NCBI GenBank assembly: GCA_031262595.1
Contig: JAISHI010000028.1
Span: 1 to 56,435, forward strand
Origin: Christensenellaceae bacterium
Lineage (GTDB): Bacteria > Bacillota > Clostridia > Christensenellales > UBA1242
DNA: 56,435 bases
Direction of reading: 5' to 3'
Made by a program: the position numbers and the translations under genes. Positions 3,653 to 50,201 of this stretch are shown piece by piece (the stretch's first letter is position 1; each line of letters starts with the position of its first letter). The notes below the pieces were generated by a model that made no database searches, was not told where the DNA came from, and saw only the letters and a list, made by a program, of their open reading frames with translations.

Positions 3653-4254
3653 TTTTTGCCACCCTTCTTTCCCGCGCTCCATTCTTCTTTTTTAATATTC
3701 CCTTTTTGCGGTTTTTCGCCGAGCCGAACGGGATACTTAAACTGCCCAAAAATAACCGCAAACCAATCCCAAACCCACATACAAAAAACAACAAAACCAA
3801 AAATAAACGGCGGATAAGGAACATAACCCCGAACTAACTCGTCCCAACCCTGAGCGATTAAAGTCGGCGCAGACGGGTTTCCCCAGTTATAAAACAACCC
3901 CAACGAAAGCCCCAGCCAAAGCGCGGTTAAAACGGCGTAAGTTATCCCCCGCGCTTTTCGCCCTGCGACAAAACAATGCGCGCCAAAAATCCCGAGAATT
4001 AACCAAAGGCACATTTTCGTTAAGCTAAGGTCGTCAGGCCTATATTTCGTCATAACAATCTTTTCGCCCGATTTTGTTCGTTTAATATCCTTCGCTTTTT
4101 CTATGCTGGCTTCCGCGATTTGGACTTTCGAAATTCCGCAAACCGCGCATTCGCTAGTATATTTCGGGATTTTGTTCCCGCAATAAGGGCATTTTATAGT
4201 GCTGTTATAAAGCCTATCGAGTTTTTCGCTAACTGGTTTCTTAATTTGTGGCAT
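3649..4254 (-). CDS. Zinc-ribbon plus TM2-domain membrane protein
   Basis: CPYCG..CAVCG, then LGIFGAHCFVAGR (TM2) and hydrophobic helices; start at MPQIK inferred. Confidence 0.7.
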   Translation of the reverse strand: MPQIKKPVSEKLDRLYNSTIKCPYCGNKIPKYTSECAVCGISKVQIAEASIEKAKDIKRTKSGEKIVMTKYRPDDLSLTKMCLWLILGIFGAHCFVAGRKARGITYAVLTALWLGLSLGLFYNWGNPSAPTLIAQGWDELVRGYVPYPPFIFGFVVFCMWVWDWFAVIFGQFKYPVRLGEKPQKGNIKKEEWSAGKKGGKK

Positions 4255-4275
4255 GAAATATATTATCATATGCGC

Positions 4276-4304
4276 TTGACTTTTGCAAAACTTTTTATTA
4301 TATT
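4276..4304 (+). promoter_or_regulatory. Sigma-A promoter of rpsL-rpsG
   Basis: TTGACT-17bp-TATATT. Confidence 0.65.
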
Positions 4305-4467
4305 ATTCGCTATATGTAAGTGGCGGTTAATTTTGAAGTAGTAGCCAAAGTCGACCTCACGAAAATAGGTGGCGTGAATATAAGCGCTAGCAACCTTAGC
4401 GAAAGGGTTAATCGCTAGCCGTTGCAAAATTAAAATCTTAAAACTAATTAAAAGGAGATATTTTAAG

Positions 4468-4842
4468 ATGCCAACAATCAACCAAATAATGCGCAAACCT
4501 AGAAAAACTCGTGCGAATAAGTCAAAAGCGCCAAGCCTTCAAGGCAACCCACAAAAACGCGGAACTTGCCTTCAAGTTAAAACAGTTACGCCTAAAAAGC
4601 CTAACTCGGCTCTTCGAAAAGTTGCGCGTGTTCGTTTTTCGAATAAAGAAGAAGGAACGGCGTATATCGGCGGAATCGGGCATAACCTCCAAGAGCATAG
4701 CGTTGTGCTTGTTCGTGGCGGAAAGGTTAAAGACTTACCCGGCGTTCGTTATCATATCGTTCGTGGAACACTCGACACAGCCGGCGTTGCAAAACGCGCA
4801 CAAGGTCGTTCGCTCTACGGCGCAAAACGTCCAAAGAAATAA
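4468..4842 (+). CDS. rpsL: 30S ribosomal protein S12
   Basis: [29 protein letters not shown]; AAGGAG SD. Confidence 0.99.
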
Positions 4843-35758: not shown

Positions 35759-35811
35759 TTTTGGTAGGGCTAAGTGGACTTGAACCACTGACCCCCGCCT
35801 TATCAGAGCGG
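35759..35811 (-). repeat. att site: 53-bp direct repeat of the tRNA-Ile 3' part
   Basis: Identical to 42884-42936; abuts the displaced tRNA terminator at 35737-35762. Confidence 0.95.
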
Positions 35812-35915
35812 GTGGCAAGAGTAAAGATATAAACCCTAAATAATAGCGGAAATGCTTATATTTATTGGTTAAAACAAGTATATAGAAAGGCGACTATCAT
35901 AAAGTTAAATAAAAT

Positions 35916-35941
35916 TTGGACCTTATTTTGGACCTTATGGG
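35916..35941 (+). repeat. Tandem TTGGACCTTAT repeats, likely integrase arm sites
   Basis: Two copies here and two at 42789-42812 near the other att. Confidence 0.75.
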
Positions 35942-36092
35942 TTATTTTTTGACAGTTTGCCCGTCTAAAACTGCCTATTTCTGTCTATGTCGCTTGTGGT
36001 GGAAATGTGTGGTTTTTGGGAAGCCGCCCTTAAGTTTATATATAAAATATAATAATAGAAAATTTATGATAGTTAGAATTGGAGAAGATAAA

Positions 36093-37034
36093 ATGAAGAG
36101 TAATTATGAAAATTTAGTTGAGAATCTGTTTGAGAATACAAGTAGAGAAACCTTTGAAAGGTTAAAAAATAAAATATGGAAAAAGGAGAAAATTAAAATG
36201 ACAATTTATGGTGATAAAGCCGAGATAAAGACAAGGCGAACCAACAAAATGCCGAGGGTTAGAAATATTGGCGGCGGTGAGTATGTGGTTTTGAGTAGCG
36301 GCGAGATAAAAAAATACAAGAAAAATAAGAATCGCGGCGACAATGAGTTCAATCTAAGGAAAACTAATGAGCGAATAAAGCAAGTTGCAATGACGAACAC
36401 GAAAAGCCTTAATAAAATTTTATTTATGACGCCGTCTTATAACGGAGACTATAACGATAGAAAGAATGATATAAGTAGGTTAAAGCAAGACGGCAAATAT
36501 TTAATCAAAAAGTTAAGAGAGCGATATAAAGACGAGTTTGGGCAGTTAGAGTATATGGCGGTTACAGAGCCCTATGAGAACGGCGGATACCACCAACACT
36601 ATATTTTATTTTTTAATGAATCCCCTACTAAGGTTTTTATAGATTGGAAAGAAGTCGAAGAGTTATGGGGGTATGGCAATGTTGCAATGGGACAACCAAT
36701 AAATAAAGAACAAGTATATAGATATCTCGCGCCGTATGACGCAAAGGGCGGCGACAGCGACCAAGAGAAAATGGGAAAGAAATATGGCCGCCAAATGGCA
36801 ATGCCGAGCGGAACGCGCATCGTAGATATGTCGCGTGGGCTCGAAAAGCCAAGAGAAGTTATTTTAACCTATTGGGAAGCCGAACAAGAGTTGCAGAAAG
36901 AAAAATTTGATATCGCCTCCCCCGAACAAAGCCAATGGGTAAATAAAATTAAAGACAATAATGGCGACCCTGTTATGAGTTTTATGACAATCAAAAATGA
37001 ATATGAAAAGATAATAAGGCGTCAATTTAATTGA
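36093..37034 (+). CDS. Rolling-circle replication initiator / HUH endonuclease
   Basis: Motif I FMTPSY, motif II EPYENGGYHQHYILF, motif III YLAPY; start may be 36093 or 36198. Confidence 0.8.
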   Translation: MKSNYENLVENLFENTSRETFERLKNKIWKKEKIKMTIYGDKAEIKTRRTNKMPRVRNIGGGEYVVLSSGEIKKYKKNKNRGDNEFNLRKTNERIKQVAMTNTKSLNKILFMTPSYNGDYNDRKNDISRLKQDGKYLIKKLRERYKDEFGQLEYMAVTEPYENGGYHQHYILFFNESPTKVFIDWKEVEELWGYGNVAMGQPINKEQVYRYLAPYDAKGGDSDQEKMGKKYGRQMAMPSGTRIVDMSRGLEKPREVILTYWEAEQELQKEKFDIASPEQSQWVNKIKDNNGDPVMSFMTIKNEYEKIIRRQFN

Positions 37035-37075
37035 TCCTTGTAGAGAAAAATAAATAGAATTTATGGAGTTTAAAA

Positions 37076-37666
37076 ATGAACAAAGAAAAACAAAAAGCAA
37101 TGATAAATTTAGTTTTAGAGGACAAGATAGATACAAGATATTTACAAAGGCAATTATTTATTGGGTATGAAAAAGCCTTGTTATTGGCGAACGCAATGAT
37201 TGAGTATGGCGCGGTGAGTGCGGAAGGGTTTGTCGCAAAGAAACAAATGGAAAGGTTTATAGTGCCAATGCTAAAACTATGCGAAACCGATTTTATTTTA
37301 ATGCATTATGAAAAGAATATGACAGTTTTTCAAAGGGTGATTGACGGCGCATACAGCGGCGCGTTGCGCTTGGGGAGACAACATAAGGACGATTTTATGG
37401 AGCGTGTGCGCGAGTTTGTCGGCGATTGCGAACTTATGATATTGGCGGCGAGTGTCGCGGAAATTGTAAAGATTTTAATGCCCGATTTTGGGAGTTTAAC
37501 TATGGAGGAGTTGGCGGAGGAATTGGGTTTACCCGCCGTTGACGAGATAAGCGCGATTGTAGAGATATTTAAATATTTTCAATGCCTATGGGGTGCAACA
37601 AAATTTAACAACAGCGAGCCAATAGAGTTAAATAATCCAGTAAAAATGAGTGCCCGAAATGCTTGA
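37076..37666 (+). CDS. Protein with N-terminal FtsK-gamma-like winged helix
   Basis: DTRYLQRQLFIGYEKA..MIEYGAVS resembles FtsK-gamma LQRRLRIGYNRA. Confidence 0.55.
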   Translation: MNKEKQKAMINLVLEDKIDTRYLQRQLFIGYEKALLLANAMIEYGAVSAEGFVAKKQMERFIVPMLKLCETDFILMHYEKNMTVFQRVIDGAYSGALRLGRQHKDDFMERVREFVGDCELMILAASVAEIVKILMPDFGSLTMEELAEELGLPAVDEISAIVEIFKYFQCLWGATKFNNSEPIELNNPVKMSARNA

Positions 37667-37837
37667 TTAGTGCTAATATGACCACTGCCGAGCCGAGAAT
37701 CGCCATATTCGTGAGGTCACGAAAACAGTAGCTGCGGACGAGCGAGCTTGGGATTTACTGACGTCAATAAGTCCTAAAAAGAACGGACAATAGACGAATA
37801 ATTATATGAAGTGGCGGTTAGAGCAATAACCGCTTTT

Positions 37838-38149
37838 TTATTTGACCTTTAATAAGTCAATGGCGAGTTGTTTTCTATCCGGAGTGGCGGATTTTAATAA
37901 AGTTAATAACTCCTTGTCCGTTTTATAGTCCGCGATATTATCATAAAACAGCTCTTGAAAGTTTGAATTGACAGCCTCCAAAATTTCAATCATTGTCTCG
38001 AAACTTGGGGCAAACGACTTGTCGCTTTCTAGTTTGTGGCAATAGCCTTCTGCCTTACCGATTCGCAACGACAATTTTCGAGCCGAGAGATTCGCGCGAT
38101 TTCTTAAGTAAGCAATCCTATTTACTAGTTCGTTAACATTAAATTCCAT
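37838..38149 (-). CDS. XRE-family regulator of the element
   Basis: RIAYLR..LSARKLSLRIGK..PSFETM. Confidence 0.85.
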   Translation of the reverse strand: MEFNVNELVNRIAYLRNRANLSARKLSLRIGKAEGYCHKLESDKSFAPSFETMIEILEAVNSNFQELFYDNIADYKTDKELLTLLKSATPDRKQLAIDLLKVK

Positions 38150-38279
38150 AATTGGAGTTTATAAAACAGCCAAATAGAAACCTGTCCCGTGATATAACCA
38201 AAATATCCACTAACAAAATAAAATATAGAGTTATACGATATATTGTTGATTTTTGTCGAGTGATACTCTATTATTAAGT

Positions 38280-39992
38280 ATGTTAAGAGTGAGAAATTTA
38301 TTTGTAGTGTCGTTTATGCTATTGGCAACATTTTTTTTGACGGCTTGCGGAACAGATAAGTCTTATTCAACCTCCTCTTGGAGTAGTAGTGAAGAGTATA
38401 TTTATGATCAAATTTCAGTAACCTCCTATCTAGATACAGCTTTAGGCTTTCAAATTAGTATTCTTGATATTAAAATTGGTATTGGTAAAGCCGTTATCGA
38501 GTATGATGCTCGTAGGCTATTTCGTGAATATAGTGACGACTGTAAAATTATGCTATACAAACTTACTGCGCCAACAGCAACGACAACGATAGCTGATATA
38601 ACTTTAGAGTATTTATACACACTCAATACCACAAAGCAAGAGGAAGAAATAACGCAATCTGGTGATTATATATTGAAATTTTTTGATAATAGCTATAGTT
38701 TGGTAGCAGAAGAAGCATTTACAATCGAGCCCGCAGAATTGGAAGACTATTTTGAAATCACTACTACGGGCTCCGAGCTCACAGTGCAATATTTTCCAGG
38801 ACTATACTCTTTTTTAGGAGGAACGTGTGCGATAGAATTAAGACCAACCAACCCTGAGAGTTCTAGTTTTCACGTAGAGCCCATACAAAGTGACGACCGC
38901 GGCGGAGGCTTTACTATTGGCGGTGCTGTTAGCAACTGCAATTTTTCAATTATTGCAAATCACGGCAGCCGCAACGCCGCTATTGTTTATGATATTCCCC
39001 TTTTCGGTGGCAACTCAAAAACAGGTGGCAATGTGGGCGGTAACACAATAGATCCTAATGCCTTATATCAAATAATAATTGCTGCCGTGATAATTTTATT
39101 AAATATACTATTTATGATTTTATCTTTACGAGCTTGGAGGAAAAAGGTAAAAACACTTTTATATACGGTGCCAAGAACAACCGAACAAATGCAATTGTTT
39201 TTAGAATCCAAATCATATGCAAAATTTGATAAGAGAACTAAAAAATACAAGGCATATATGTTGTCCTTACTCGTGGTAAGTATGGGCTTGTCCGCGGTGG
39301 GAATTATACTTGGCTTGTTGTTTGTGCCTATGGGGTTAACAATCCTTACTGTAATAAGTGGAATGATTTGTTCTTGGTTTATTTTTGCAACTTTTGTTTC
39401 AGGATCAAAAAAGTTCGTTATTGATCGTGGCGAATGTCTTATTTGCGGTGGAAATGCTGATATAACTGACGTTAAGTTTCTAAGAACTGATAAACAAACG
39501 CGAGAAGTTGCAAGAGACGCAGCTCTTAAAAAAGTTTTAGGCAATAACGAGCGCATCGTAAGCACAACGCAGCGATATGAGAAACCTAAATATGGCAACC
39601 TCCCCGCTAAACTTGTTGTGTATGACCTTATTGAAACTATAAACGAAATGTATGAAGTAAGTTATAAGTGCAACCAATGCGGCGAAATTTGGAAAGCCGA
39701 AGAGGCGCGAAACGATAGACCGCCAGAGATAACCTCGGCAGGTGAAAACAATGAGGCAAAAACGAAAAGCGAAGAAACAAAACCTATCGAAATTATTGAT
39801 AACTCTAAATATGTTTTTTGCGTGGAGTGCGGAAAGAAAAATAAATTAACCAACAGTAAATGCGACAGTTGCGGCAACGCTTTAATAAAACCAATATCGA
39901 TTAAAACAATATTTTGTGCCTATTGCGGAGCAAAGAATAATTTCGATAAGGAGGTTTGTGAAGAGTGTCATAAAGAATTATTAAAGAAGTAG
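38280..39992 (+). CDS. Lipoprotein-signal multi-pass membrane protein with C-terminal zinc ribbons (cargo)
   Basis: Lipobox LTA-C, ~250-aa extracellular region, 3 TM, six CxxC motifs. Confidence 0.7.
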   Translation: MLRVRNLFVVSFMLLATFFLTACGTDKSYSTSSWSSSEEYIYDQISVTSYLDTALGFQISILDIKIGIGKAVIEYDARRLFREYSDDCKIMLYKLTAPTATTTIADITLEYLYTLNTTKQEEEITQSGDYILKFFDNSYSLVAEEAFTIEPAELEDYFEITTTGSELTVQYFPGLYSFLGGTCAIELRPTNPESSSFHVEPIQSDDRGGGFTIGGAVSNCNFSIIANHGSRNAAIVYDIPLFGGNSKTGGNVGGNTIDPNALYQIIIAAVIILLNILFMILSLRAWRKKVKTLLYTVPRTTEQMQLFLESKSYAKFDKRTKKYKAYMLSLLVVSMGLSAVGIILGLLFVPMGLTILTVISGMICSWFIFATFVSGSKKFVIDRGECLICGGNADITDVKFLRTDKQTREVARDAALKKVLGNNERIVSTTQRYEKPKYGNLPAKLVVYDLIETINEMYEVSYKCNQCGEIWKAEEARNDRPPEITSAGENNEAKTKSEETKPIEIIDNSKYVFCVECGKKNKLTNSKCDSCGNALIKPISIKTIFCAYCGAKNNFDKEVCEECHKELLKK

Positions 39993-40059
39993 TCTAGTTT
40001 AAGTAGATAAAGGAAAAACAAAAACACGAAATTTAAAAACAATAAAAGGAAAAATAAAA

Positions 40060-40335
40060 ATGGGCGGAGACGAACAAATAAAAGATTGGGACTATAAAGA
40101 CACAGCGATAGAAATATTAAAAGGGTGGAATTTAATTGGTTATTGTGAAATGCACGGAGTAACCATAGATAATGGTTATAGAAGCAATGACCCTGAAGTA
40201 TATAAAAAAGTGGTTTATTCTTTTAAGAAAAAATACCCAAATGAAGATTTGGGGTTGTTTAAAGATAAGGTAAAAGAAGTTTTAGATGAAACTGCAGTAA
40301 GTTGCCCTGCATGCGATTCAATATTGGCAGACTAA
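40060..40335 (+). CDS. Small hypothetical protein with CxxH/CxxC
   Basis: AAGGA SD; CEMHG..CPAC. Confidence 0.6.
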   Translation: MGGDEQIKDWDYKDTAIEILKGWNLIGYCEMHGVTIDNGYRSNDPEVYKKVVYSFKKKYPNEDLGLFKDKVKEVLDETAVSCPACDSILAD

Positions 40336-40402
40336 TTTCGCTTCCCAGCTCGAAACTTTTATGATATTGTCCCGGTCCCGGAATTAAAGGAGCCGGTAGA
40401 TA

Positions 40403-40579
40403 ATGGAAAAAATATTTGAAGAAGGCGAAGAACCGAAAAGCAAGGAAAAGGAATTTGAAGAGTTGCTGATAATGCTTTTGGAGGAATTGTTTTGCAGGCA
40501 GATACACAATAGGTTAGAGTTGGCGATTCAAACCTTTGACGTCGCGGAATTAAGAAAAATCTTTTTAGAAAGCCAATAA
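40403..40579 (+). CDS. Small acidic hypothetical protein (58 aa, below the ORF-track cutoff)
   Basis: AAAGGAG upstream; MEKIFEEGEEPK...RKIFLESQ. Confidence 0.4.
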   Translation: MEKIFEEGEEPKSKEKEFEELLIMLLEELFCRQIHNRLELAIQTFDVAELRKIFLESQ

Positions 40580-40694
40580 TCGCCACCAGAAGCCACCGGA
40601 GGCACCGCCAGCCGCTAGCTGCCCTTTTCCCGAGTAAGTTATAGTGAAATGAAAGAATCGCCCAGATTGGCAACCAGAGCCCTAGAATCGATCA

Positions 40695-41057
40695 CTAGCC
40701 CTTTGGGGTGAATACTGAATAGAAGGAATCTTTGCCGCCGTTAAGTTGATAGAAAGCCGCTAAAAGATTTAGGCACAGTTTGAAGCCTGTCATATCTTTG
40801 TTCGCGCCGTTGAGATAGTTAGCAAGAACGTTTTTAGAGATATTGATTTTTTGCGAAAATGCCTTTTGCGAGAATTTAATTTTTTTATTTTTAAGTATAG
40901 AAAGTTGTGCATCATACCACCGAATAAAGTCAGTAACCTCAATTGGCGAGAAATCGTCCAAGGTTGGGGTTTTTTCATTTTTTATAGGGCGCTCAGTCGG
41001 ATCGAGATAAAAATCTTCTGCCTCCGATTCCTCAAAAAATACTTCAAATTCATACAT
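40695..41057 (-). CDS. HTH-containing regulator divergent from xis-int
   Basis: FSQKAFSQKINISKNVLANYLNG. Confidence 0.55.
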   Translation of the reverse strand: MYEFEVFFEESEAEDFYLDPTERPIKNEKTPTLDDFSPIEVTDFIRWYDAQLSILKNKKIKFSQKAFSQKINISKNVLANYLNGANKDMTGFKLCLNLLAAFYQLNGGKDSFYSVFTPKG

Positions 41058-41317
41058 AATTTTAATTATACAATAAAATAAATCCCTTGTATATGGGATT
41101 TTTTGTCAATTTGTCCAAAAAACTCCAAAAATAGAACTTCCAAACTGACTATTAAGCTAGACGGAGGTATTGCAATGAATAGCAGCTAATTAGTTGACAA
41201 CAAGCAGGACTAGAGGTATTCCAGGGACCTGAAATTTTGGAAGGAGAAAAAAAATGATATTAAAGAAAAATGTGCAATATTTGGGGATTAGCACGATAGG
41301 AAGTAGAGAAGAAGATT

Positions 41318-41557
41318 ATGGATACAAGTTTGGCAGCGATTTTGATAGAAAAAGAAGCAGAAAGATACGCCACAAAATATAACAAAGATTTTTTAGATAT
41401 TAAAGATTTACAAGAGCTTATGGGATTGGGTAGGGAAAATATAACAGCGTTGATACAGCGCGAGGATTTCCCCTCGATACAACAAAATAGACGGTGGATA
41501 GTTGGCATAATGGAGTTTGTAGTTTGGAGAATGCGCGAAGGAGGAATATTAAAATGA
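41318..41557 (+). CDS. Excisionase-like helix-turn-helix protein
   Basis: FLDIKDLQELMGLGRE..FPSIQ..WIV; ATGA overlap with the integrase. Confidence 0.75.
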   Translation: MDTSLAAILIEKEAERYATKYNKDFLDIKDLQELMGLGRENITALIQREDFPSIQQNRRWIVGIMEFVVWRMREGGILK

Positions 41558-42843
41558 GAAAAAAGAGAAGACGCGAAAAAGGTATGGGCAGCATTTTCCA
41601 ACGCAAAGACGGCAGTTGGAGGGGCTATAAAACCGTTAATGGCGAAAGAATAAACGCTAGCGGCAAAACAAAGGAAGCAGTCCAAGAAAAGTTAGAAAAG
41701 AAATGCGACTTAAAGCCTTATATTGAAAAGAACGGCGACGAAACTTTTGGGAGTTTAATGCTTCAGTGGTCATTAAATAAAAAACAAAAAGAAGTTAAAT
41801 CTAGGACTTTTGAAGGGATACTCGCAGATTTTAATAATTATATAAAACCTAAATTGGGCAAATATAAACTGTTCGAAATAGATAGGGATATGGTAGAGGA
41901 AACAGTAGCGAACGCGACGAGGAAAACTGACGGAAGGCTTTTGGATAAGTCCACAAGGAAGTCATTGAAACAAGAAATAAGCCAATTTTTTGAGTATGCC
42001 GTAAGCAAGAAATTATGTAAGGACAACCCCGCCGATTTTGAGTTGGATTTGGCTGAAACGGAAGTTTTTGACCCTGAAAAAGAAACGTGTAAGGCGATTC
42101 CGAAAGAAAAAAGGGACGAATTTATAAGAATCCTTAAAGAGCACGACGTCTTATACCCAATGTGTCTTATGGGAATGTTCGGCGGTTTAAGAGTCGGCGA
42201 AATTTGTGGTTTAACTTGGAAACAAATTGATTTTGATAAAAATACTTTTGCAGTCTCTAAGGCTATCACCTATAAGGCGGATTTCGACGAGCAAGGGAAT
42301 GAAAAGAACAAGCATACAGTATTGTCAGTGCCAAAGACAACGGCAAGTATTAGGACCAATCCAATGCCAGATATTTTGGTTAATGCGCTAATAGAGCATA
42401 GAAATATACAATTAGAACGAGAAACAGCGACAGGTATAGATTTTACAAGCAAGAATCAGTTTGTATTTTGCACCAAAACAGGGACAATGCGAACTTATAG
42501 CGGAGCAAAGTCATTGCTGAAAAGATTTCTAGAAAAACATAATTTAAGAGAAGCAGGTTTTCTATGGCACAGGCTTCGCCATACATTTTCAAATATGCTT
42601 AGAGAAAATGGTGAGGACCCTTTAAGGATAACAAGGTTAATGGGGCAATCAAAGACCTCCACCAATTTAATTTATCAGGAGCTTGGAAACGGCGAAACTT
42701 GCCGAAGCGCCGTAGATATTTTTAACAAACTCACGGAAAAACACCAAGAAGCAAATAAGGCGAAGCCAATGCAAGAGTTTTTAGAAAGTTGGACCTTATT
42801 GGACCTTATGGGAAGAAACTTCGGCAAGCAAAGGCAGAAATAG
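41554..42843 (+). CDS. Tyrosine recombinase/integrase
   Basis: GMGSIFQRKDGSW arm domain; GLRVGE, PKT, HRLRHTF, LMGQ, LIY. Confidence 0.95.
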   Translation: MRKKRRREKGMGSIFQRKDGSWRGYKTVNGERINASGKTKEAVQEKLEKKCDLKPYIEKNGDETFGSLMLQWSLNKKQKEVKSRTFEGILADFNNYIKPKLGKYKLFEIDRDMVEETVANATRKTDGRLLDKSTRKSLKQEISQFFEYAVSKKLCKDNPADFELDLAETEVFDPEKETCKAIPKEKRDEFIRILKEHDVLYPMCLMGMFGGLRVGEICGLTWKQIDFDKNTFAVSKAITYKADFDEQGNEKNKHTVLSVPKTTASIRTNPMPDILVNALIEHRNIQLERETATGIDFTSKNQFVFCTKTGTMRTYSGAKSLLKRFLEKHNLREAGFLWHRLRHTFSNMLRENGEDPLRITRLMGQSKTSTNLIYQELGNGETCRSAVDIFNKLTEKHQEANKAKPMQEFLESWTLLDLMGRNFGKQRQK

Positions 42844-42886
42844 ACAGTAAAATAGTCCCATAAATTGGGACTATTCCTAGGTATTT

Positions 42887-42963
42887 TGGTAGGGCTAAGT
42901 GGACTTGAACCACTGACCCCCGCCTTATCAGAGCGGTGCTCTAACCAACTGAGCTATAACCCT
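42887..42963 (-). tRNA. tRNA-Ile(GAT)
   Basis: 77-nt cloverleaf AGGGTTA..CT-GAT-AA..TAGCCCTACCA. Confidence 0.97.
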
Positions 42964-43063
42964 ATATTAGTGGAACGACTTAATCTAACATATAGTTTAG
43001 GACTTTGCAATGGGAAATTTTATTATTTAAATCATATCTTGTTTATTCTACATAAAATGAAGC

Positions 43064-44785
43064 ATGGGAAACTTGGCGCCGGAAGAGGTAATTGGCGAAG
43101 AACTGCTCGCGATTTGTAAGGATGAAAACCGTAAAGATGTTTTTAAAAATCTTAAGGCGTTTTTTGAGCGCGGAGCGATTTGTAATGAGGCGTATCTAAC
43201 GGAAGCTTTATTTATACTTAAAATAAGGCTTTTCCCGGATGAAGTTTTGGATTTACTTATAACTAAAGGCGCGAATAGGAGGATAAAAAACGCGTTTAAT
43301 CATAGGCGTGGGTATTATGCCTTCGCCGAAGAACATAAAGGCTTTTATCGCGGGAAATGCAGCGTTTGGCGCGCGAGAGATCGGGTTATTATGAAACGTA
43401 TTTTGAAGGAACTCGGCAATCCGCAAGATAAAATCCCGCCGGTTCTTCATATAACGGGTTCAAATGGAAAAGGGTCTGTTTGCGGTTTTTTAGGAGGAAT
43501 TTTAGAAGCGCAAGGTTATAAAGTTCATAAGTTCCAAACGCCAGCGCTTATAAACACCAATGAAATGATAACGCTCGCCGGCGAAGTTATAAGCGACGAA
43601 AAGTTAATTTTATTAACGAGAAAGGTTATAAAAACTTACTTTAAAATAAAAGACGACCCGAAATTAATTGCGGAAATTAAAAAAGCCGACGAACTCGACG
43701 CCTCGCGCGGCAAAGTCTATACCGACCCAGTTTATGAGAATATGTTGTATTGGTGTATCCAAGTGCCGGTTATGTTTTTGGCGTTCGCGTCCGTTCCCGC
43801 GGATTTTTCGATTATAGAAGTTATCGTCGGCGGAAAAAACGATTTTACGAACGTTATAAAACCCAAAAATACGCTCGCGACAGTTTTAACGCATATCGAA
43901 TACGGTATCGGTAGCAACGACGGAACAATGCCGAAGTATCATAACGACGGAACGGTTGAGAACAGCACAGTTGCCGCCTGTTATCATAAAGCAAACCTCG
44001 GGAAACCGGGCATTCCGATGATTGCTGCGGATCAAGAACCCGATGGGCTCGCTGAGATTAGGAGAGTTGCGCGCGACGAAGTTAAAACGGAAACTTTTGA
44101 GTTTAATCGGGATTGGTTTATAAAAAACGAAACAAAAAACGATTTTACTCTTTCAATTTTTAATAAAGAAATTAAAATTCAAAAAAGTAAAACCCTTATC
44201 GGCGATTTTCAAACGAAAAATATTGCGACGGCTGCCTCGACGCTGCTTTTTTTGCGTGAGGCGGGTAAGATTAAACTCGATTTATCTTTAATTAACGATG
44301 GCATTCAAAAAACGGAAATTCCTGCCCGCCCACAAAGAGTTTATAACAGTTTTTTAAATAAGTTTTTAGGCTCTGACGTTGAAATCTTAGCGGGCGTTAT
44401 AAAATTAAACTCTCGGGGAGTTCAGCCGTTTGAGGAAGTTTTAGAAGAAAATAACGATTATACGAACTATTTTATCTATACCGCCTCCGGCAGGGTTCAA
44501 AAACACGGAACCGGCGCGCTTGCGTTTATTGAGAAATATTTTAACGACGCGTCGCGGCTTGTCCTTTATGAATATAAAGAATTCTATCGCGGTAGTATTG
44601 AAAAAGTCCGCGAGATTTTAAACGAGGAAAATATAAAATTTACTTATAAAAATTCGTTATCCAGCGCGCTAACTTTCGTTAAAAACGAGATTAAAAACGC
44701 GAAAACAAAGGCGCGCGTTATTTTATGCTGCGAATCTATGATAAACATGGATAAAAAGATTTATTACTTTTCACAAAGCAATTAG
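43064..44785 (+). CDS. Divergent FolC/Mur-ligase-like ATP-dependent ligase
   Basis: LGNPQDKIPPVLHITGSNGKGS, ILEAQGYKVH, IEVIVGG.NDFTNV, GDFQ..N. Confidence 0.7.
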   Translation: MGNLAPEEVIGEELLAICKDENRKDVFKNLKAFFERGAICNEAYLTEALFILKIRLFPDEVLDLLITKGANRRIKNAFNHRRGYYAFAEEHKGFYRGKCSVWRARDRVIMKRILKELGNPQDKIPPVLHITGSNGKGSVCGFLGGILEAQGYKVHKFQTPALINTNEMITLAGEVISDEKLILLTRKVIKTYFKIKDDPKLIAEIKKADELDASRGKVYTDPVYENMLYWCIQVPVMFLAFASVPADFSIIEVIVGGKNDFTNVIKPKNTLATVLTHIEYGIGSNDGTMPKYHNDGTVENSTVAACYHKANLGKPGIPMIAADQEPDGLAEIRRVARDEVKTETFEFNRDWFIKNETKNDFTLSIFNKEIKIQKSKTLIGDFQTKNIATAASTLLFLREAGKIKLDLSLINDGIQKTEIPARPQRVYNSFLNKFLGSDVEILAGVIKLNSRGVQPFEEVLEENNDYTNYFIYTASGRVQKHGTGALAFIEKYFNDASRLVLYEYKEFYRGSIEKVREILNEENIKFTYKNSLSSALTFVKNEIKNAKTKARVILCCESMINMDKKIYYFSQSN

Positions 44786-44871
44786 CCCCAGCATATTATT
44801 AAATAGAACCAATACTGTTCGAATACATAAATTAAAAATTTCGAACACTTTTTTAGCCGCCTACATATCGT
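44772..44871 (+). promoter_or_regulatory. Tandem sigma-K-like promoters
   Basis: CACA-16-CATATTAT (44772-44799), AACC-15-CATAAATT (44807-44833), AACA-16-CATATCGT (44844-44871). Confidence 0.5.
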
Positions 44872-44893
44872 GTTTGTAGGAGGTCAATATGTA

Positions 44894-45181
44894 ATGCTTT
44901 CAATAATTTTTTCGATTGTCGCTAGTATAACTAGCGGCATGATTCTTTTTTTATGGCAACTTAGTTTGCGGAAAAAAAGGGACGAAGATAGAAACCGTGT
45001 TAAACGAGAACACGAACAAAACAATTTGCTTTTTAAAACGATAAAAGCGATTGGCGAATTAACAGTTGCTAACAGCATCGCGCTAAAAAGCGGAAAAGCA
45101 AACGGCGAGATGCACAAAGCGATGGAGAACTACAAAAGCATAGATAAAGAAATATATGATTTCTTGCTCGGCAACGAGTAA
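44894..45181 (+). CDS. Small single-TM protein of the type found beside clostridial phage holins
   Basis: N-terminal TM, then a helical domain with ..GKANGEMHKAM; AGGAGG SD. Confidence 0.6.
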   Translation: MLSIIFSIVASITSGMILFLWQLSLRKKRDEDRNRVKREHEQNNLLFKTIKAIGELTVANSIALKSGKANGEMHKAMENYKSIDKEIYDFLLGNE

Positions 45182-45205
45182 ACAAAACAAAAAAAGGAGA
45201 AAAAA

Positions 45206-45565
45206 ATGGAGATAATTTGCGTTCCAATAATCGTTTCAATAGTTTTTGGAGCAATGCAATATTACAAAAAATATATTGCGAAATTCGAAACAGCATGGAC
45301 AAAGTTAATACCGATTTTGAGCGGATTGCTTGGCGCTGGGCTTGGCATACTTTGTTATTATGCCCTGCCAGTCATAATCCCCGCAGCAAACGCCGCAACG
45401 GCGATGTTTGTCGGGGCAGCAAGCGGACTTTCCGCAACGGGTTGCAATCAGATTTTTAAGCAACTAAAAACTGCAGGAATAACCGTAGTTGAACCTGAAA
45501 ACCCAGAAACAGAGATAGAAACAGAAGAAGAAAACGAAAATAAAATAGAAGGAGAAAAACAATGA
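45206..45565 (+). CDS. Phage holin family protein (3 TM)
   Basis: VPIIV..IPILSGLLGAGLG..VGAASGLSATGCNQIFKQL, acidic tail. Confidence 0.8.
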   Translation: MEIICVPIIVSIVFGAMQYYKKYIAKFETAWTKLIPILSGLLGAGLGILCYYALPVIIPAANAATAMFVGAASGLSATGCNQIFKQLKTAGITVVEPENPETEIETEEENENKIEGEKQ

Positions 45566-47232
45566 TAAAAAAAATAATTTTCGATTCCCTGACGTCTGAC
45601 GGCGAAAGCAGGGAAATGACGACAAGAAACTTGACTGCGGTGTTTAAACCGGGGCTTCCTAACCTTACGCGAAATAACTTTGCAATCGATGGCGCGGATA
45701 TCGTTAAAGTAGCGGTAGTATCCCATAGCGAAGAAGAATCCGTTTATAATATCGCGATAGAAAATATTACTAAGGCTAACGGGCGGTTGATTGCCGTTTC
45801 GGTTGCGCAAAGCATAAGCGAAAACTATGGCGTTTGGAATGTTAGGCGCTATGCCCCTGTTTGGGTGCGCGAAGTTAGTTGGGAGGCGCTTGAGGCTAAT
45901 GGCGCTAGCGAGGAGATAACGACAACGGAATTAACGTTAGGCTTTTCTTCCGCCGTTAATCTTTCCGAGAGCGATTTTGAAATCCCCGAGGGCGCAACCA
46001 TCGTTTCGCTCTACCCATGCGGTCATGAGTATGAGCCGCCAACAACGCCAGCAGCCGAAGAGGAAGAAGAACAAGGCGGCAACAGCAGTTTAAATTTCTT
46101 GGGTCGTTTAGTTAACGGCGTTACGAGCTTCATTGATGGAGTTAAAGATAGGATTATGCCTACCGTAAATGACCAAGATACAAGCACACCACCAGCAACA
46201 CTAACCGCTGGGCAAGAAGTTGCTAGTCTTGAAGCTGTGTTAACCAAAGAAGGAGCTGCTGAGCCAGTCCAAGAAGCACCTGCTGAGGCTGAAAAGGAAA
46301 AAGCAGCGGCAGATGCGCGCGATTCCGAGGGAAGCACTTGTTGGAAGATGGAGATTGCGCTTGATCCGGAAATCGTAAACGGAACGACGCTCACGGTTAG
46401 GCTTGCCCGCGAATGGACGACGGGCGAGGACGGCTTTATAATTACCCCAACAAGCAAAGACGTCGAAGTTTACGTTCATGTAAAGAAAAATAACTGGGTG
46501 CAAGCAACAAACTCGCGAAACACGCCTACACTTGGAAGAAGCGGTTATACCACTGTCGCTATGAGCGTTCCTTATACCGACGACAGTTTATTCGCCCATC
46601 TAGGCAATGGCGGGATTATCATAGACCAACCGGGCGATTACGAGGTTTCGATAAGTGTTTATGGCAGCGCGAATAAGGAGGGTGGTTTATACTTTACCCT
46701 CGGCAACGGAATTAGTTGGGCGGAGTATGTTTTAGAGGATGTAGTCTTTAATAGCACGAAAACCGTTATAATTCCAAACCGCACGCGAGGCATGGCGTTT
46801 AACTTACAAGCAAAATCGCAATTTAATACTACTCAATTAACAATGGACGCTGCGCAAAGTTTCATGAGCGTTAAATATCTAGGCAGAGGCATTATCGGCG
46901 CGGAATTAGAGCAAGGTGAACGTGCTATTCCGGAAAGCTTACCGAACAGGCAACAAATAACAGCGCTTAATGAAGTCGACACCGCATACGACGCAAGATT
47001 GGATACCTTAGAAGGCACCGACGCCAGCCATAGTGGTAGGCTTGAAACCCTTGAAGGCACCGATACCGCATATGACGAAAGATTAGATAACTTGGAAGGC
47101 ACCGACGCCGACCACGGGGCTAGAATCTCGGCATTAGAGGGCGACGTTGTTATTCCGGAAGAACCAGCGCAACCGCCAGCAGAAGAAGCGCCACCGCCAG
47201 CAGACGAAGCAGTGGCTGAGGCAGTTAGGTAA
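45562..47232 (+). CDS. Fibre-like protein A: two Ig-like repeats, C1q/BclA-like domain, coiled-coil repeats
   Basis: No signal peptide; ANG..TTTELTLGF repeats; GGIIIDQPGDYEVSISV; 14-aa LEGTD repeats. Confidence 0.55.
   Translation: MIKKIIFDSLTSDGESREMTTRNLTAVFKPGLPNLTRNNFAIDGADIVKVAVVSHSEEESVYNIAIENITKANGRLIAVSVAQSISENYGVWNVRRYAPVWVREVSWEALEANGASEEITTTELTLGFSSAVNLSESDFEIPEGATIVSLYPCGHEYEPPTTPAAEEEEEQGGNSSLNFLGRLVNGVTSFIDGVKDRIMPTVNDQDTSTPPATLTAGQEVASLEAVLTKEGAAEPVQEAPAEAEKEKAAADARDSEGSTCWKMEIALDPEIVNGTTLTVRLAREWTTGEDGFIITPTSKDVEVYVHVKKNNWVQATNSRNTPTLGRSGYTTVAMSVPYTDDSLFAHLGNGGIIIDQPGDYEVSISVYGSANKEGGLYFTLGNGISWAEYVLEDVVFNSTKTVIIPNRTRGMAFNLQAKSQFNTTQLTMDAAQSFMSVKYLGRGIIGAELEQGERAIPESLPNRQQITALNEVDTAYDARLDTLEGTDASHSGRLETLEGTDTAYDERLDNLEGTDADHGARISALEGDVVIPEEPAQPPAEEAPPPADEAVAEAVR
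46969..47142 (+). repeat. 42-bp tandem repeats (84-bp super-period) encoding a heptad coiled coil
   Basis: GAAGGCACCGA at 47011, 47053 and 47095; degenerate copy at 47137. Confidence 0.85.
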
Positions 47233-47249
47233 AAAGGAGGAAATGAAAA

Positions 47250-48884
47250 ATGAGAATACAAGAAATTATGTTTAGAAATCTAGAAGCAAACGGCGATACG
47301 TCGAATACAAGCACATGGGTAGATATAACCCTAGACCCGGGCTTACCTGGGCTTAAACCAAGCAACTTTGCTGTTGACGGCGCAACGAAAGTTGACGTTG
47401 TCGATAACTCGTCGGGCGCCGGAACGCAATACCGCATGACTCTTGAAAATATTACGGTTAGTAGCGGTGAGAACGTTGCCGTATCTCTTGCGAAAGCAAT
47501 AGGCGACCGTTATAAAATTATCCCAGAGCAAAACTTCGCACCTGTTTGGGTTAAAGAGATTGAATTTATCTCCGCAGATCCGAACGGCGAGAATAATATT
47601 ACGACAACCAATGAAGTTATTTTGGAATTTTCCGAAGAACTAGAAGACTTTAATAAAGATTCTTTAACGATGGAAAAGACAACTATAACTAACATGGAGC
47701 CAATAGGCGGCGTGGATCTCGTTCGGGAAGAAATTATGCGAAGAGGTGAAATAAATAGGCAACAAATATATGCATTACAACAAGAACTTCGCGAGGAAAC
47801 GGATACTGCGCGTAGAGCAGAAATACAACAAGAGTTAAGAGATTTAGAGGAAAGTCGCAGACTAATTGAAAGAAATACTTTCGCGGAATTTAAAGAAAAG
47901 GCAATGGCAACAAGTTCGTTTAGATATCGAATGACGATAGAACTTGATCATGACGTTATTAACGGCGAAATTCTTTCTATCGAACTTAACGAAGATGCTA
48001 GCCCATTCGTAATTAAACCGCGCTCACGCAAAGTTATGGTTTATGTCCGCGAAAAATTAAACACTTACGTTGAGATCGCGAACGACGAGAATAAAGTCTT
48101 AACCATTCATAATAACGATTTTACACCAATCGAGCTTACAAACCTCGTTTCGGACGATAGCAAGTATGCCCATGCGGCGGAAGGCGGAATTGTGTTTGAC
48201 GTCGACGGCGATTATGAAATTACCGCAACCGTTCAATTCTTAGCAGGCAAAGACGGAAGGATTACCTTCGCGATAGATGAGGATAAATGGACTTGCATGG
48301 GCTCTACGAGTTCGCTCGTAACGACAACCCGAACCTTTATTAAACCGGCTTGCTCATCGGGCGACGTTTATAACCTTACCGCGAAATCGCAAGAGGATAA
48401 TACGACGATTACAATGACGGATCCAAAACAAACCTATTTCGTTGTTCGCCGAATCGAGAAAGAAGCGCCAAAAACGGAAGTTGCATTAACCGAAAGCCGC
48501 GCTGAGTTTATGGACCTTGAGGGCAAATATACAACGGCAGGCAAAATCCGATACTTCGAATTGAAAAATAATTGGGCTCCTTATAATACTTCGATCAAAG
48601 TCCATGCTGTTTGGAGAGACGAAGACGGCAATACCCAAATAAAGGAATTTACGTTCAGCAAAACAATCCACGAAAATCAAACTAAAAAGGAAGACCTCGC
48701 CGACGCAAAAATCCCAGAAGGCGCAGAAATTCAATTTGGGCTTGACGTTCATGCCGGCGCGGATGTTCAAGAAACGGAAACATTCACCTATTCGCCATCG
48801 TCAACAAAAACCGCGAAATACGAAATTAGCCACGGAACAGTCAACATCATCAATATATCCTACGAAGGGATTATTTCGGACTAA
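47250..48884 (+). CDS. Fibre-like protein B, paralogue of A with a different C-terminal beta domain
   Basis: Shared PGLP.L...NFA.DGA, APVWV and GGI....GDYE; AAGGAGG SD; terminator 48919-48943. Confidence 0.55.
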   Translation: MRIQEIMFRNLEANGDTSNTSTWVDITLDPGLPGLKPSNFAVDGATKVDVVDNSSGAGTQYRMTLENITVSSGENVAVSLAKAIGDRYKIIPEQNFAPVWVKEIEFISADPNGENNITTTNEVILEFSEELEDFNKDSLTMEKTTITNMEPIGGVDLVREEIMRRGEINRQQIYALQQELREETDTARRAEIQQELRDLEESRRLIERNTFAEFKEKAMATSSFRYRMTIELDHDVINGEILSIELNEDASPFVIKPRSRKVMVYVREKLNTYVEIANDENKVLTIHNNDFTPIELTNLVSDDSKYAHAAEGGIVFDVDGDYEITATVQFLAGKDGRITFAIDEDKWTCMGSTSSLVTTTRTFIKPACSSGDVYNLTAKSQEDNTTITMTDPKQTYFVVRRIEKEAPKTEVALTESRAEFMDLEGKYTTAGKIRYFELKNNWAPYNTSIKVHAVWRDEDGNTQIKEFTFSKTIHENQTKKEDLADAKIPEGAEIQFGLDVHAGADVQETETFTYSPSSTKTAKYEISHGTVNIINISYEGIISD

Positions 48885-48956
48885 ACCGAAAACTATTTCG
48901 AAAAATTACAACAAAAATAAAGGCGACCCAAAAAGTCGTCTTTGTTTAATGAAGAG

Positions 48957-50009
48957 TTATTTTTTCTTTGCAATTTCCATTTGTTTAATAAATTGGTCAT
49001 AATCACTTTCAAAGAGTTTATCCTGTATTGGACGATATTTTTCAAATTCGCCCAATGCTTTCTCGTCTGCAAGTTCTCGTGAAATCATGCCTGCGTGCGC
49101 GAGAATATTTTTGTTGTTAAGCGATAACGCCATATCGAGGTGTTTTGCCCACGATTCCATATCCATAGGGATATGTTGCCTTGCACGCTCCTCGGCGAAA
49201 TCTAAATAACCCGAAACGATAAGTTCGAGGCTTGTCAATTCTTCTTGCGTGAGGTAATTCTTTGCAATAGTGACATCGCTTTTAACAATCTTGCCGTGTG
49301 GACTTTGCTCCCAAGTGGTTAAGCCCATGTGCTCTTTATTCGCATCGGCTCGGTTATAAATGAGTTCAGGTGCAGTATGTTTTGTTATGGCATATTCCAT
49401 TTTGTTTTGAACTTTTTTGAAAAAATCTTGCGTGGTTTTTGCATCTTTATTGTAATCGAATGCCGTTGCATAAATATCCGTAATCTTTTGCCAAAATCTG
49501 CGTTCACTCAACCGAATTTCTCGTATCTCTTCAAGCAAGTGGTCAAAGTAATCTTCTCCAAAGAAAGTCCCGTTTTCTAACCGCTTTTTGTCTAACACAT
49601 AACCACGCACAACATACTTTTTCAATACACTTGTCGCCCATTGCCTAAACGCAATCGCTCTATCGCTATTTACACGATACCCAACGGCAATAACTCCGTC
49701 AAGATTGTAAAACATTTTATTGCGTGTAACTGTGCGAGAACCCTCTTGCCCAACTGTTTCCATTTTGGAAACAGTTGCCGTTTCATCAAGTTCTTTGTCC
49801 TCAAAAATATTCTTCAAATGTTTGGAAATATCCGCTTTTTGAACATCGTAAAGTTTGGCAAGTAAATCTTGCGTAAGCCAAACATTTCCGTCTTGAACTC
49901 GAACTTCAACACCGTCATCACCGCCCGTTTGTTTAACGAATATTAAAAACTCCGCCGTAGAGTTGCGTATAACAATCTCATTCTTTTTGTTGACGTCCTC
50001 TTTTTTCAT
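48957..50009 (-). CDS. Virulence RhuM family protein
   Basis: IRNSTAEFLIF, WLTQ..LY, YNLD.IAVGYRVNS, EIREIRLSERRF.QKITDIYA, MGLTTW. Confidence 0.92.
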   Translation of the reverse strand: MKKEDVNKKNEIVIRNSTAEFLIFVKQTGGDDGVEVRVQDGNVWLTQDLLAKLYDVQKADISKHLKNIFEDKELDETATVSKMETVGQEGSRTVTRNKMFYNLDGVIAVGYRVNSDRAIAFRQWATSVLKKYVVRGYVLDKKRLENGTFFGEDYFDHLLEEIREIRLSERRFWQKITDIYATAFDYNKDAKTTQDFFKKVQNKMEYAITKHTAPELIYNRADANKEHMGLTTWEQSPHGKIVKSDVTIAKNYLTQEELTSLELIVSGYLDFAEERARQHIPMDMESWAKHLDMALSLNNKNILAHAGMISRELADEKALGEFEKYRPIQDKLFESDYDQFIKQMEIAKKK

Positions 50010-50125
50010 TATTATCTCCTTAACGTTGCTATAATATTAACAAAGATTACTGAAGAATGAAAATAAAAAAATACAAAGCCCGAATGAGTTTAGTGAAAGT
50101 TAAAAATCGCCGAAAGGCGATTCTT

Positions 50126-50201
50126 TGGTGATCCGCCCGCGACTCGAACGCGGGACAACATCATTAAAAGTGATGTGCTCTACCAACTGAGCTAGCGGAC
50201 C
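50126..50201 (-). tRNA. tRNA-Lys(TTT)
   Basis: 76-nt cloverleaf GGTCCGC..CT-TTT-AA..GCGGATCACCA; terminator 50102-50125. Confidence 0.97.

Follow-up and report, generated by a model that had tools for sequence, protein, structure and literature searches.

The present analysis concerns a compact operon of four genes, here named g1 to g4, in a 56,435-nt stretch of DNA (the window) from a Christensenellaceae bacterium (contig JAISHI010000028.1 of assembly GCA_031262595.1), in which a small membrane protein and a holin are followed by two fibre-like paralogues. Because the first two genes match an adjoining pair in a prophage of a related genome and recur together at viral loci, homology and gene order show them to be a two-gene lysis module of temperate siphophages infecting this bacterial family. 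In the window, neither phage flank of the pair is left, a 108-bp spacer is newly present upstream of it and the pair has become coupled to g3. The whole locus may tentatively be regarded, with somewhat less than an even chance, as a domesticated, sporulation-timed operon that arose when a holin pair captured from a phage was joined with two fibre genes. The holin family and the TNF/C1q/BclA head fold of the fibres are both known; what we rate as new is the joining of putatively domesticated lysis genes to TNF-headed fibres.

The operon and the phage origin of its holin pair

The window is contig C8 of a 29-contig, 811-kb assembly that was rated 83% complete, the genomes of the family being about 1 Mb in size. 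Among sequencing runs, the locus was found in one DNA run (X1), which is labelled termite gut metagenome and may be the origin of this DNA, and in no RNA run. The operon consists of the following features:

44894-45181 (open reading frame, ORF, open from 44870), plus strand: g1, 95-aa single-pass membrane protein with an N-terminal transmembrane (TM) helix and a helical tail
45206-45565, plus strand: g2, 119-aa Hol44-family holin with 2-3 TM helices
45562-47232, plus strand: g3, 556-aa signal-less fibre paralogue
47250-48884, plus strand: g4, 544-aa signal-less fibre paralogue
about 48915-48947, unstranded: hairpin with a 13-pair stem, an A-run on the 5' side and a T-run on the 3' side, likely a bidirectional terminator

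All ORFs are co-directional, with intergenic gaps of 24, -4 and 17 nt for g1-g2, g2-g3 and g3-g4, respectively. The stop codon of g2 and the start codon of g3 share an ATGA overlap (-4 nt), which points to translational coupling. The start of g1 was placed at the ATG at 44894, the sequence GGAGG being found 10 nt ahead of it at 44879-44883. With open frames, tight coupling and a terminator the operon is intact, and the 13-pair hairpin at about 48915-48947 is shared with a convergent RhuM-family gene. An earlier note on this DNA had described a tight four-gene operon closed by a terminator, and the gaps and the hairpin bear this description out. A single, N-terminal hydrophobic segment is present in g1 and three are seen in g2 (1-21, 32-61 and about 53-72). 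None is found in g3 or g4, and both therefore lack a signal peptide. They share 30% identity (E 6e-47), so that the claim of two signal-less paralogues of about 550 aa is confirmed as well.

The g2 protein passes the cut-off of Pfam PF16079, Phage_holin_5_2 (31.1 vs 29.2 bits, E 2.9e-7), and is also matched by the PHROG holin families 1299 and 1129. Its small size, its two to three TM helices and its charged C-terminal tail agree with the usual shape of a holin, the tail being acidic, not basic, and longer than in two aligned phage homologues. The g1 protein is matched by phrog_9428, a family of unknown function (E 1.8e-17). The TM protein and holin named in the earlier note are thus both present, with a TM count of two to three for the holin where three had been stated. 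Scans of g1-g4 with Pfam, PHROG and further family models gave no lysin, capsid, tail or integrase domain, in agreement with the earlier statement that the cluster is free of such genes. Likewise, no peptidoglycan-hydrolase domain was recognised by Pfam, PHROG and other models in g1-g4, in the folC-like gene located upstream or in the RhuM-family gene.

A relative of g1 was found in only one of 120 genomes of the family (G483), with 52% identity, and the holin adjoining it is 59% identical to g2. Both are encoded in a siphovirus-type prophage that starts with a head-tail adaptor, a head closure protein, a tail terminator, a major tail protein and a tape measure protein and ends with Dit, a tail protein, two tail fibres, phrog_9428, the holin and two large serine recombinases, the pair being carried between the tail-fibre and the integrase genes. 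In IMG/VR, 78 loci with the holin family were found; 23 of these contain a g1 homologue, which in 21 is located directly upstream of the holin. Together with the 52-59% identity to the prophage pair, this recurrence upholds the earlier view that the holin module is phage-derived.

Of 82 ORFs in the neighbourhoods of the IMG/VR loci, 47 were scanned with Pfam, a set that excludes the g1 homologues and the majority of the shorter ORFs. At nine g1-type loci, the genes preceding g1 include Gp10_C, phage-fibre-repeat, Gly_rich_2 or BspA-type leucine-rich-repeat proteins. The holin is followed by two serine recombinases at six of the nine, by a single serine recombinase at one and by a tyrosine integrase at another, integrases thus following it at eight of nine; at the remaining locus (L058) only small, unscanned ORFs come after the holin. 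No lysin was found among the scanned ORFs beside the holin at any of the nine loci. At seven of ten distant loci devoid of g1, an Amidase_2, GH25 or PG-binding protein is encoded immediately after the holin. Furthermore, the phages with the g1-holin pair (IMG/VR loci L047-L070 and the G483 locus L030) mostly have at their end a tandem of large serine recombinases, one of about 500 aa and the other of 530-545 aa.

Compared with the Hol44 phage cassettes (PF16079; PHROG 1299/1129), the pair of the window is alike in that g2 passes the Pfam model and in that both proteins are 52-59% identical to the prophage pair. It differs from them in the absence of phage flanks and of an adjacent endolysin, in an acidic holin tail that exceeds those of the two aligned phage homologues in length, in the promoter-bearing spacer added upstream and in having fibre genes downstream, at the position where the parent phages have integrases. 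In phage loci little or no sequence separates g1 from the gene before it, where the window has the 108-bp spacer instead. A canonical lysis cassette has an endolysin next to its holin; this is missing from the cluster, as it is from the closest phage relatives at the nine loci. Neither is there an integrase, capsid, terminase or tail gene in the same element by which the locus would be recognised as a prophage. Relatives of g3/g4, of the folC-like gene or of the RhuM gene were found at none of the 78 holin-bearing viral loci.

A terminase-bearing prophage was not found in the assembly (PF03354 without a match, PF03237 with a single orphan among chromosomal genes). The orphan is a lone TerL-like gene (Terminase_6N and 6C; contig C7 of this genome, G000, 3125-4534; locus L126) amid housekeeping and spoVA genes. 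It adjoins the gene of an 830-aa protein without a family match on a 17.7-kb contig without other phage genes. Contig C7 was considered as a prophage served by this holin and was rejected, given this single orphan gene among housekeeping and spoVA genes.

Fold and distribution of the fibre paralogues

The AlphaFold2 monomer model of g4, obtained with the family alignment as input, has a predicted local distance difference test score (pLDDT) of 81.5, and the following domains are seen in it:

residues 4-98: Ig domain
residues 103-152: Ig domain
residues 154-220: helical hairpin
residues 224-405: beta neck and TNF/C1q/BclA-like jelly roll
residues 405-427: disordered linker
residues 435-543: beta-sandwich

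Residues 268-405 form the TNF/C1q jelly roll of the model. In VIA-align, this part superimposes with EDA-A1 (Z 14.6), BAFF (14.1), F-BclA (13.5), BclA (13.4), a cyanophage A4 tail protein (13.2), ExsFA (12.5), PRD1 P5 (12.1) and Bd2439 (10.3), so that TNF, C1q and phage tips match the head fold as well as BclA and F-BclA do. Foldseek against the PDB found the spike knob of phi812 (E 1e-6) and Bd2734 (E 3.6e-6), and also BxpB and ExsFA; against BFVD, the matches of g4 (E 2e-9 to 1e-6) include many tail fibres and also collagen- or C1q-type proteins. Several of the matched PDB entries are titled as trimers, g4 having been modelled as a monomer. For g3, the layout comprises two Big_12-like Ig domains, an acidic, Pro- and Ala-rich linker, a TNF/C1q-like head that is assigned by homology to g4, and C-terminal repeats of the LEGTD type (repeat family D1).

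The Ig domains of both proteins are distant, Big_12-like relatives as judged by profile comparison. The match of g4 to PF19078 (Big_12) reaches 18.2 bits, below the cut-off of 27. A profile of residues 1-150 of g3/g4 leads to tandem Ig repeats of large surface proteins, and the label Big_12-like is used because eight of the 20 scanned matches of this profile list Big_12, six of them above the cut-off; dockerin or SLH domains are also present in some of the 20. Ig-like repeats with a C1q/BclA-like domain, as proposed in the earlier note, are thus supported by the profile matches and by the jelly-roll model with its Z-scores of up to 14.6.

Neither protein contains a run of at least four GXX units or a match to Collagen in Pfam, and BclA_C (PF18573) does not match them either. 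No SLH, LPXTG, cell-wall-binding (CWB), LysM or other wall or membrane anchor was found in g3/g4 by Pfam, and a baseplate or tail-attachment domain was not recognised in the fibres. The synthesis of BclA-type proteins takes place in the mother cell and is controlled by SigK. With BclA, BxpB, ExsFA and F-BclA, the fibres have in common the jelly-roll head (Z 12.5-13.5 for g4, root-mean-square deviation (rmsd) 2.6-3.3 Å over 123-129 residues), the absence of a signal peptide and a CATA-type motif upstream. The sequence identity of the g4 head to the solved heads is, however, 9-16%, and g3/g4 differ from that group in having no GXX repeats and no BclA_C or Collagen match, in their N-terminal Big_12-like Ig domains, in a helical or low-complexity stalk and in the extra beta-sandwich after the head of g4. 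Phage C1q/TNF fibre tips and the Bdellovibrio fibres Bd2734 and Bd2439 have the same head fold as g4, but a sequence relationship to them is not detectable and the fibre family was not found in phage collections.

The C-terminal domain of g4 was also modelled alone (pLDDT 85.2) and gave generic beta-sandwich matches only, the best being an Eubacterium rectale protein of unknown function in VIA-align (Z 8.3) and a BFVD match with E 4.4e-4 and an rmsd of 8 Å. A lead from ESM-Atlas to the head-decoration protein D of phage lambda was rejected, as a decoration protein occurs in neither list of 50. Free-standing versions of this beta-sandwich, 120-123 aa long, were observed in other Clostridia directly after one or two trypsin-like peptidase genes:

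L019, 1471-1842, minus strand
L020, 1525-1887, plus strand
L021, 155-517, minus strand
L024, 46-525, minus strand
also in L025 and L026

In genome G230, the free-standing protein is found in a setting resembling an integrative and conjugative element, with TraG, a type IV secretion system coupling protein and RepA_N.

The profile of g3 and g4 was scored against 1.84 billion protein representatives and yielded 163 proteins. Those matched at profile positions of about 255-590 form a small family (P0004-P0009, P0016, P0024 and P0027). Its members have no Pfam match, form singleton clusters and are all named 'hypothetical'. A word-based protein search with g3/g4 recovered only g3 and g4 themselves, and profile and sequence searches of solved structures gave nothing useful. 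Relatives of the fibres were found neither by tblastn in 50,697 phage genomes, nor among the 74 matches of an IMG/VR pattern scan, nor in two metagenome scans; g3 has no similarity to the 551-aa tail fibre of the G483 prophage. The earlier note had foreseen homologous clusters confined to prophages with endolysins as an observation that would speak against it; nothing of the kind was seen, the fibres being found only outside phage collections. The family is absent from 60 relatives of this genome, and 400 genomes of the class gave isolated matches to the Ig or C-terminal domains and no full-length member.

Among 185,579 species genomes, two fibre loci were recovered by a pattern scan. At L016, from an Oscillospiraceae metagenome-assembled genome (MAG), two tandem fibre paralogues follow an SMR efflux gene, a tRNA and ordinary chromosomal genes. 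At L015, from a Ruminococcus MAG, one fibre gene comes after several small membrane proteins and a 577-aa membrane-anchored protein, and a SpoIIID-like helix-turn-helix (HTH) gene is located downstream of it. One of the small membrane proteins matches phrog_4105 and another phrog_20274/PF06541, and a 148-aa ORF appears multi-TM by eye; a 145-aa membrane protein of this locus shows no similarity to g1. The 577-aa protein (L015, 8112-9845), located between the small membrane proteins and the fibre, has no family match and no PDB sequence match. Within about 12-14 kb around the fibres, no phage structural genes were found at either locus, nor do these loci contain this holin or an exact promoter motif near the fibre genes. 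SpoIVA is encoded in all three fibre-bearing genomes, although in one of them the match is partial and located at the end of a contig. Conservation of the four-gene order outside prophages, named as a check in the earlier note, was not observed, the order being unique to this genome; the copy of the window is not in a prophage.

Promoter-like motifs, a motif-bearing amidase and the sporulation genes

Upstream of g1, the earlier note had reported two exact matches and one near match to the motif mACm-N16-CATAnnnT, and these were recovered as follows:

44772-44799, plus strand: P1, CACA-N16-CATATTAT, exact match, overlapping the last codons of the folC-like gene
44807-44833, plus strand: near match, AACC-N15-CATAAATT, with a 15-nt spacer instead of 16
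44844-44871, plus strand: P2, AACA-N16-CATATCGT, exact match, its -10 box ending 22 nt before the start codon of g1

The motif is a consensus given by the earlier reader and stems from B. subtilis. The two exact matches are the only ones in the whole window and both are inside the 108-bp spacer upstream of g1. Two matches per window are in themselves unremarkable, since this number was reached in 21 of 100 shuffles. Their placement in one spacer is unusual, because among the 761 genes with a full 160-nt upstream region, five have a match with a spacer of 16-17 nt within these 160 nt and g1 is the sole gene with at least two. P1 coincides with a sigma-70-like TTCACA-18-TATTAT that agrees at 10 of 12 positions.

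Genome-wide, 22 exact matches with the N16 spacer were counted, most of them within coding regions. Apart from those upstream of g1, a single match was classed as intergenic and has a gene downstream, namely:

contig C21, 14470-15429: signal-less gene with Amidase_3 and two PG_binding_1 domains, motif 44 nt upstream, chromosomal setting

Relatives of this amidase are present in six of 60 genomes of the family, at eight loci. An exact motif precedes three of the eight (binomial P 1.5e-5 against the background of this genome, the related genomes not being independent of one another), and two more have spacers of 14-15 nt. The sequence TTAGCCSC-N-CATA is common to P1, P2 and the amidase promoter, this extension having been derived post hoc. 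The extended motif TTA[AG]CC[CG]C-N1-4-CATA was rejected as evidence: three of its six matches are intergenic, but the count is circular because the motif was derived from those three promoters. Looser SigK patterns were uninformative; their matches precede a deaminase-like gene and the genes of two membrane proteins that are uncharacterised. A ToxN-family type III toxin gene (contig C21, 15794-16294; L035, 9795-10295) follows the amidase gene at a distance of about 360 bp.

The best NCBIfam match of the amidase is CwlD, at 90.8 bits and thus far under the cut-off. In PMC13599503, CwlC is given as the key hydrolase of mother-cell lysis. With the Bacillus system (cwlB/cwlC/cwlH, SigK), the amidase on contig C21 shares a signal-less Amidase_3 domain behind a SigK-like motif, but it differs in that its wall-binding part consists of two PG_binding_1 domains and in its best match to CwlD. 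The titles and abstracts of the literature surveyed describe no holin dedicated to mother-cell lysis.

Several sporulation genes were found in the genome: SpoIVA (539 bits) and SpoIIAB are above their cut-offs, SpoVAC, SpoVAD and SpoVAEB are present, and SigF- and SigG-like factors are present with scores under their cut-offs. A SigK-like factor (contig C28, 3091-3810) reaches 249 bits against SigK cut-offs of 252 and 298.65, and 192 bits with the SigE model; its ORF has a hydrophobic N-terminal stretch. As to the sigK gene looked for by the earlier note, a SigK-like factor is thus present alongside SpoIVA, with a score that stays under the SigK cut-offs. The sole Spo0A-like protein (contig C15, 44582-45199; L009, 1264-1881) has 205 aa and corresponds to its model only in the DNA-binding half (positions 137-258), the score of 137 bits being under the cut-off of 200, with no match to the receiver part.

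Because of the placement and sharing of the motif and the presence of sporulation genes, a promoter of the mother-cell type upstream of the operon is a reasonable inference. Of the SigK-like promoters proposed earlier, it can be maintained that the motif exceeds chance, as seen from the amidase gene and from three of the eight amidase loci of relatives; SigE and SigK types are inseparable here, and P1 is sigma-70-like as well.

Readings of the locus and its accessory setting

In the reading that we tentatively prefer, the mACm-N15/16-CATAnnnT motifs would be mother-cell promoters of the SigK/SigE type, from which the operon would fire late in sporulation. The fibres would be synthesised in the cytoplasm of the mother cell and become attached to the surface of the spore in that compartment, as is described for the signal-less BclA, BxpB/ExsFA and F-BclA. 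The holin would perforate the mother-cell membrane, and the signal-less Amidase_3 protein encoded on contig C21 behind the same motif could reach the wall through the perforated membrane, lyse the mother cell and so free the decorated spore. This scheme would account jointly for the sharing of the promoter, for the lack of a lysin in the cluster and for the lack of a wall anchor on the fibres, and we favour a holin for mother-cell lysis with fibre assembly inside the cell over a holin that exports the fibres. The scheme in its full form, with a phage holin pair placed in the late mother-cell programme, acting with a separate, like-promoted amidase, and combined with non-collagen TNF-headed spore fibres, is nevertheless rather doubtful.

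A number of points weigh against the preferred reading. The motif is low in information, P1 is in addition a sigma-70-like match (10 of 12 positions), P2 would give a very short leader, and promoters of the SigE and SigK types are indistinguishable here. The SigK-like factor is just under the curated cut-offs (249 against 252 and 298.65 bits), and a separate SigE was not found in the 83%-complete assembly. Phage fibres bear TNF/C1q heads at least as often (the tail fibres in BFVD, phi812, cyanophage A4 and PRD1 P5), and g3/g4 are without collagen repeats and without a BclA_C match in Pfam. Two tRNAs enclose the accessory islet in which the operon is located, and a further integrated element adjoins the islet. 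By the searches described above, g1 is rare (one of 120 genomes of the family), the amidase is present in only six of 60 relatives, the other two fibre loci have neither this holin nor the exact motif, and the four-gene operon is unique to this genome, the fibres being found in none of 60 relatives and at full length in none of 400 genomes of the class.

If the preferred reading is true, phage lysis genes were recruited for a developmental step, the release of the spore, and not for toxin secretion. A holin would then join the sporulation-specific hydrolases that drive mother-cell lysis, and a dedicated holin-endolysin arrangement would answer how the enzymes of mother-cell lysis pass the membrane. 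The fibres would represent a new, rare family of signal-less proteins of gut Clostridia with Ig domains and a TNF head, unrelated in sequence to BclA.

The locus could alternatively be the remnant of a prophage or genomic islet without a role in sporulation, which we consider unlikely but which has several observations in its favour. The g1-holin pair would then be left from a decayed temperate phage, g3 and g4 would be receptor-binding or decoration fibres of a phage or recombined cargo, and the promoter matches would be coincidence or ordinary sigma-A promoters. The setting of the operon is as follows:

42887-42963, minus strand: tRNA-Ile, left border of the islet
42964-50125, unstranded: accessory islet, 7.2-kb interval from tRNA-Ile to tRNA-Lys, containing the folC-like gene, the operon and the RhuM gene
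43064-44785, plus strand: folC-like gene, first gene of the islet, upstream of the operon
48957-50009, minus strand: RhuM-family gene, convergent to the operon
50126-50201, minus strand: tRNA-Lys, right border of the islet

The whole interval looks accessory because nearly all of it is absent from relatives: the fibres from all of 60, g1 from all but one of 120 genomes of the family and the folC-like gene, at E <= 1e-20, from all of 30. The pair is a bona fide phage module, the folC-like gene matches a PHROG family, a RhuM gene and a second integrated element are nearby, TNF/C1q heads are typical of phage fibre tips and P1 overlaps a sigma-70-like match. Rarity and location in the islet favour this explanation, and the extreme rarity of the fibre family, each member of which is a singleton cluster, would fit fast-evolving mobile genes. 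However, a holin followed by fibres is not a phage order, since proteins of the tail-fibre type precede g1 and none follows the holin at nine of nine g1-type loci, and g3/g4 remained unmatched in the 50,697 phage genomes, the IMG/VR pattern scan and the 78 holin-bearing viral loci. Chromosomal genes surround the other two fibre loci, at which about 12-14 kb contain no phage structural genes. Moreover, the operon is intact in its open frames, its tight coupling and its terminator, and two exact motifs and one near motif, common to the amidase gene and to some loci of relatives, are hard to accept as chance. Even if only an islet remnant were present, the g1-holin module of this phage group would still be shown to travel without an adjacent endolysin, and small phage modules could be cleanly excised and provided with a new promoter.

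It is more improbable that the holin releases or exports the fibres in the manner of a type 10 secretion system (T10SS) or TcdE, as the earlier note had suggested. Their passage would be non-lytic or would occur by lysis of a subpopulation, perhaps together with the amidase, and the released fibres would be free or surface-bound adhesins, lectins or bacteriocin-like proteins. This explanation is favoured by the ATGA coupling of the holin to g3 and by the fibre gene of L015, which likewise follows several small membrane proteins. Both fibres are signal-less, TNF-like heads are found in secreted lectins and in the adhesive fibres of Bdellovibrio, and PMC10847048 and PMC12150058 document non-phage clusters of holin and endolysin genes by which large proteins without a signal peptide are released. 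In common with T10SS/TcdE, the window has a phage-derived holin outside a prophage beside large signal-less proteins, but a hydrolase encoded together with the holin, by which a T10SS is recognised, is missing, the cluster being without an endolysin or spanin. There is no peptidoglycan hydrolase in the cluster or the islet, and the sole candidate is on another contig (C21), linked by the promoter motif only. The cargo is, furthermore, fibre-like and not a toxin or chitinase, and the proposed trigger is sporulation. The fibres carry no cell-wall or membrane anchor domain recognised by Pfam (SLH, LPXTG, CWB or LysM), the tandem fibres of L016 are without a holin, their upstream neighbour being an SMR efflux protein, and no homology links the small membrane proteins of L015 with g1. 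Finally, export would be needless if the promoters were of the mother-cell type, because these would place the fibres inside the compartment that holds the spore.

Within the islet, between tRNA-Ile and tRNA-Lys, no capsid, terminase, tail or integrase genes were found, and none of the 20 listed repeat families is an att-like repeat of tRNA-Lys. With TIGR01499, the folC-like gene reaches 154 bits, just under the cut-off of 162.65, and it matches the phage family phrog_16655; it is the sole FolC-like gene in the assembly and has an N-terminal extension of about 110 aa. To the left of the islet, a separate 7.1-kb integrated element (35759-42936) is flanked by two identical 53-nt direct repeats (35759-35811 and 42884-42936), which correspond to the 3' part of tRNA-Ile. 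The integrase at 41494-42843 was considered as a part of the cluster and was excluded because it belongs to this element, which carries its own 53-nt att repeats. The genes of the element encode a Rep of the ORF2/G2P type, an FtsK-gamma-like protein, two HTH proteins, a 579-aa double-zinc-ribbon protein and the tyrosine integrase, and its GC content is 0.37-0.38 as compared with about 0.44 for the genome.

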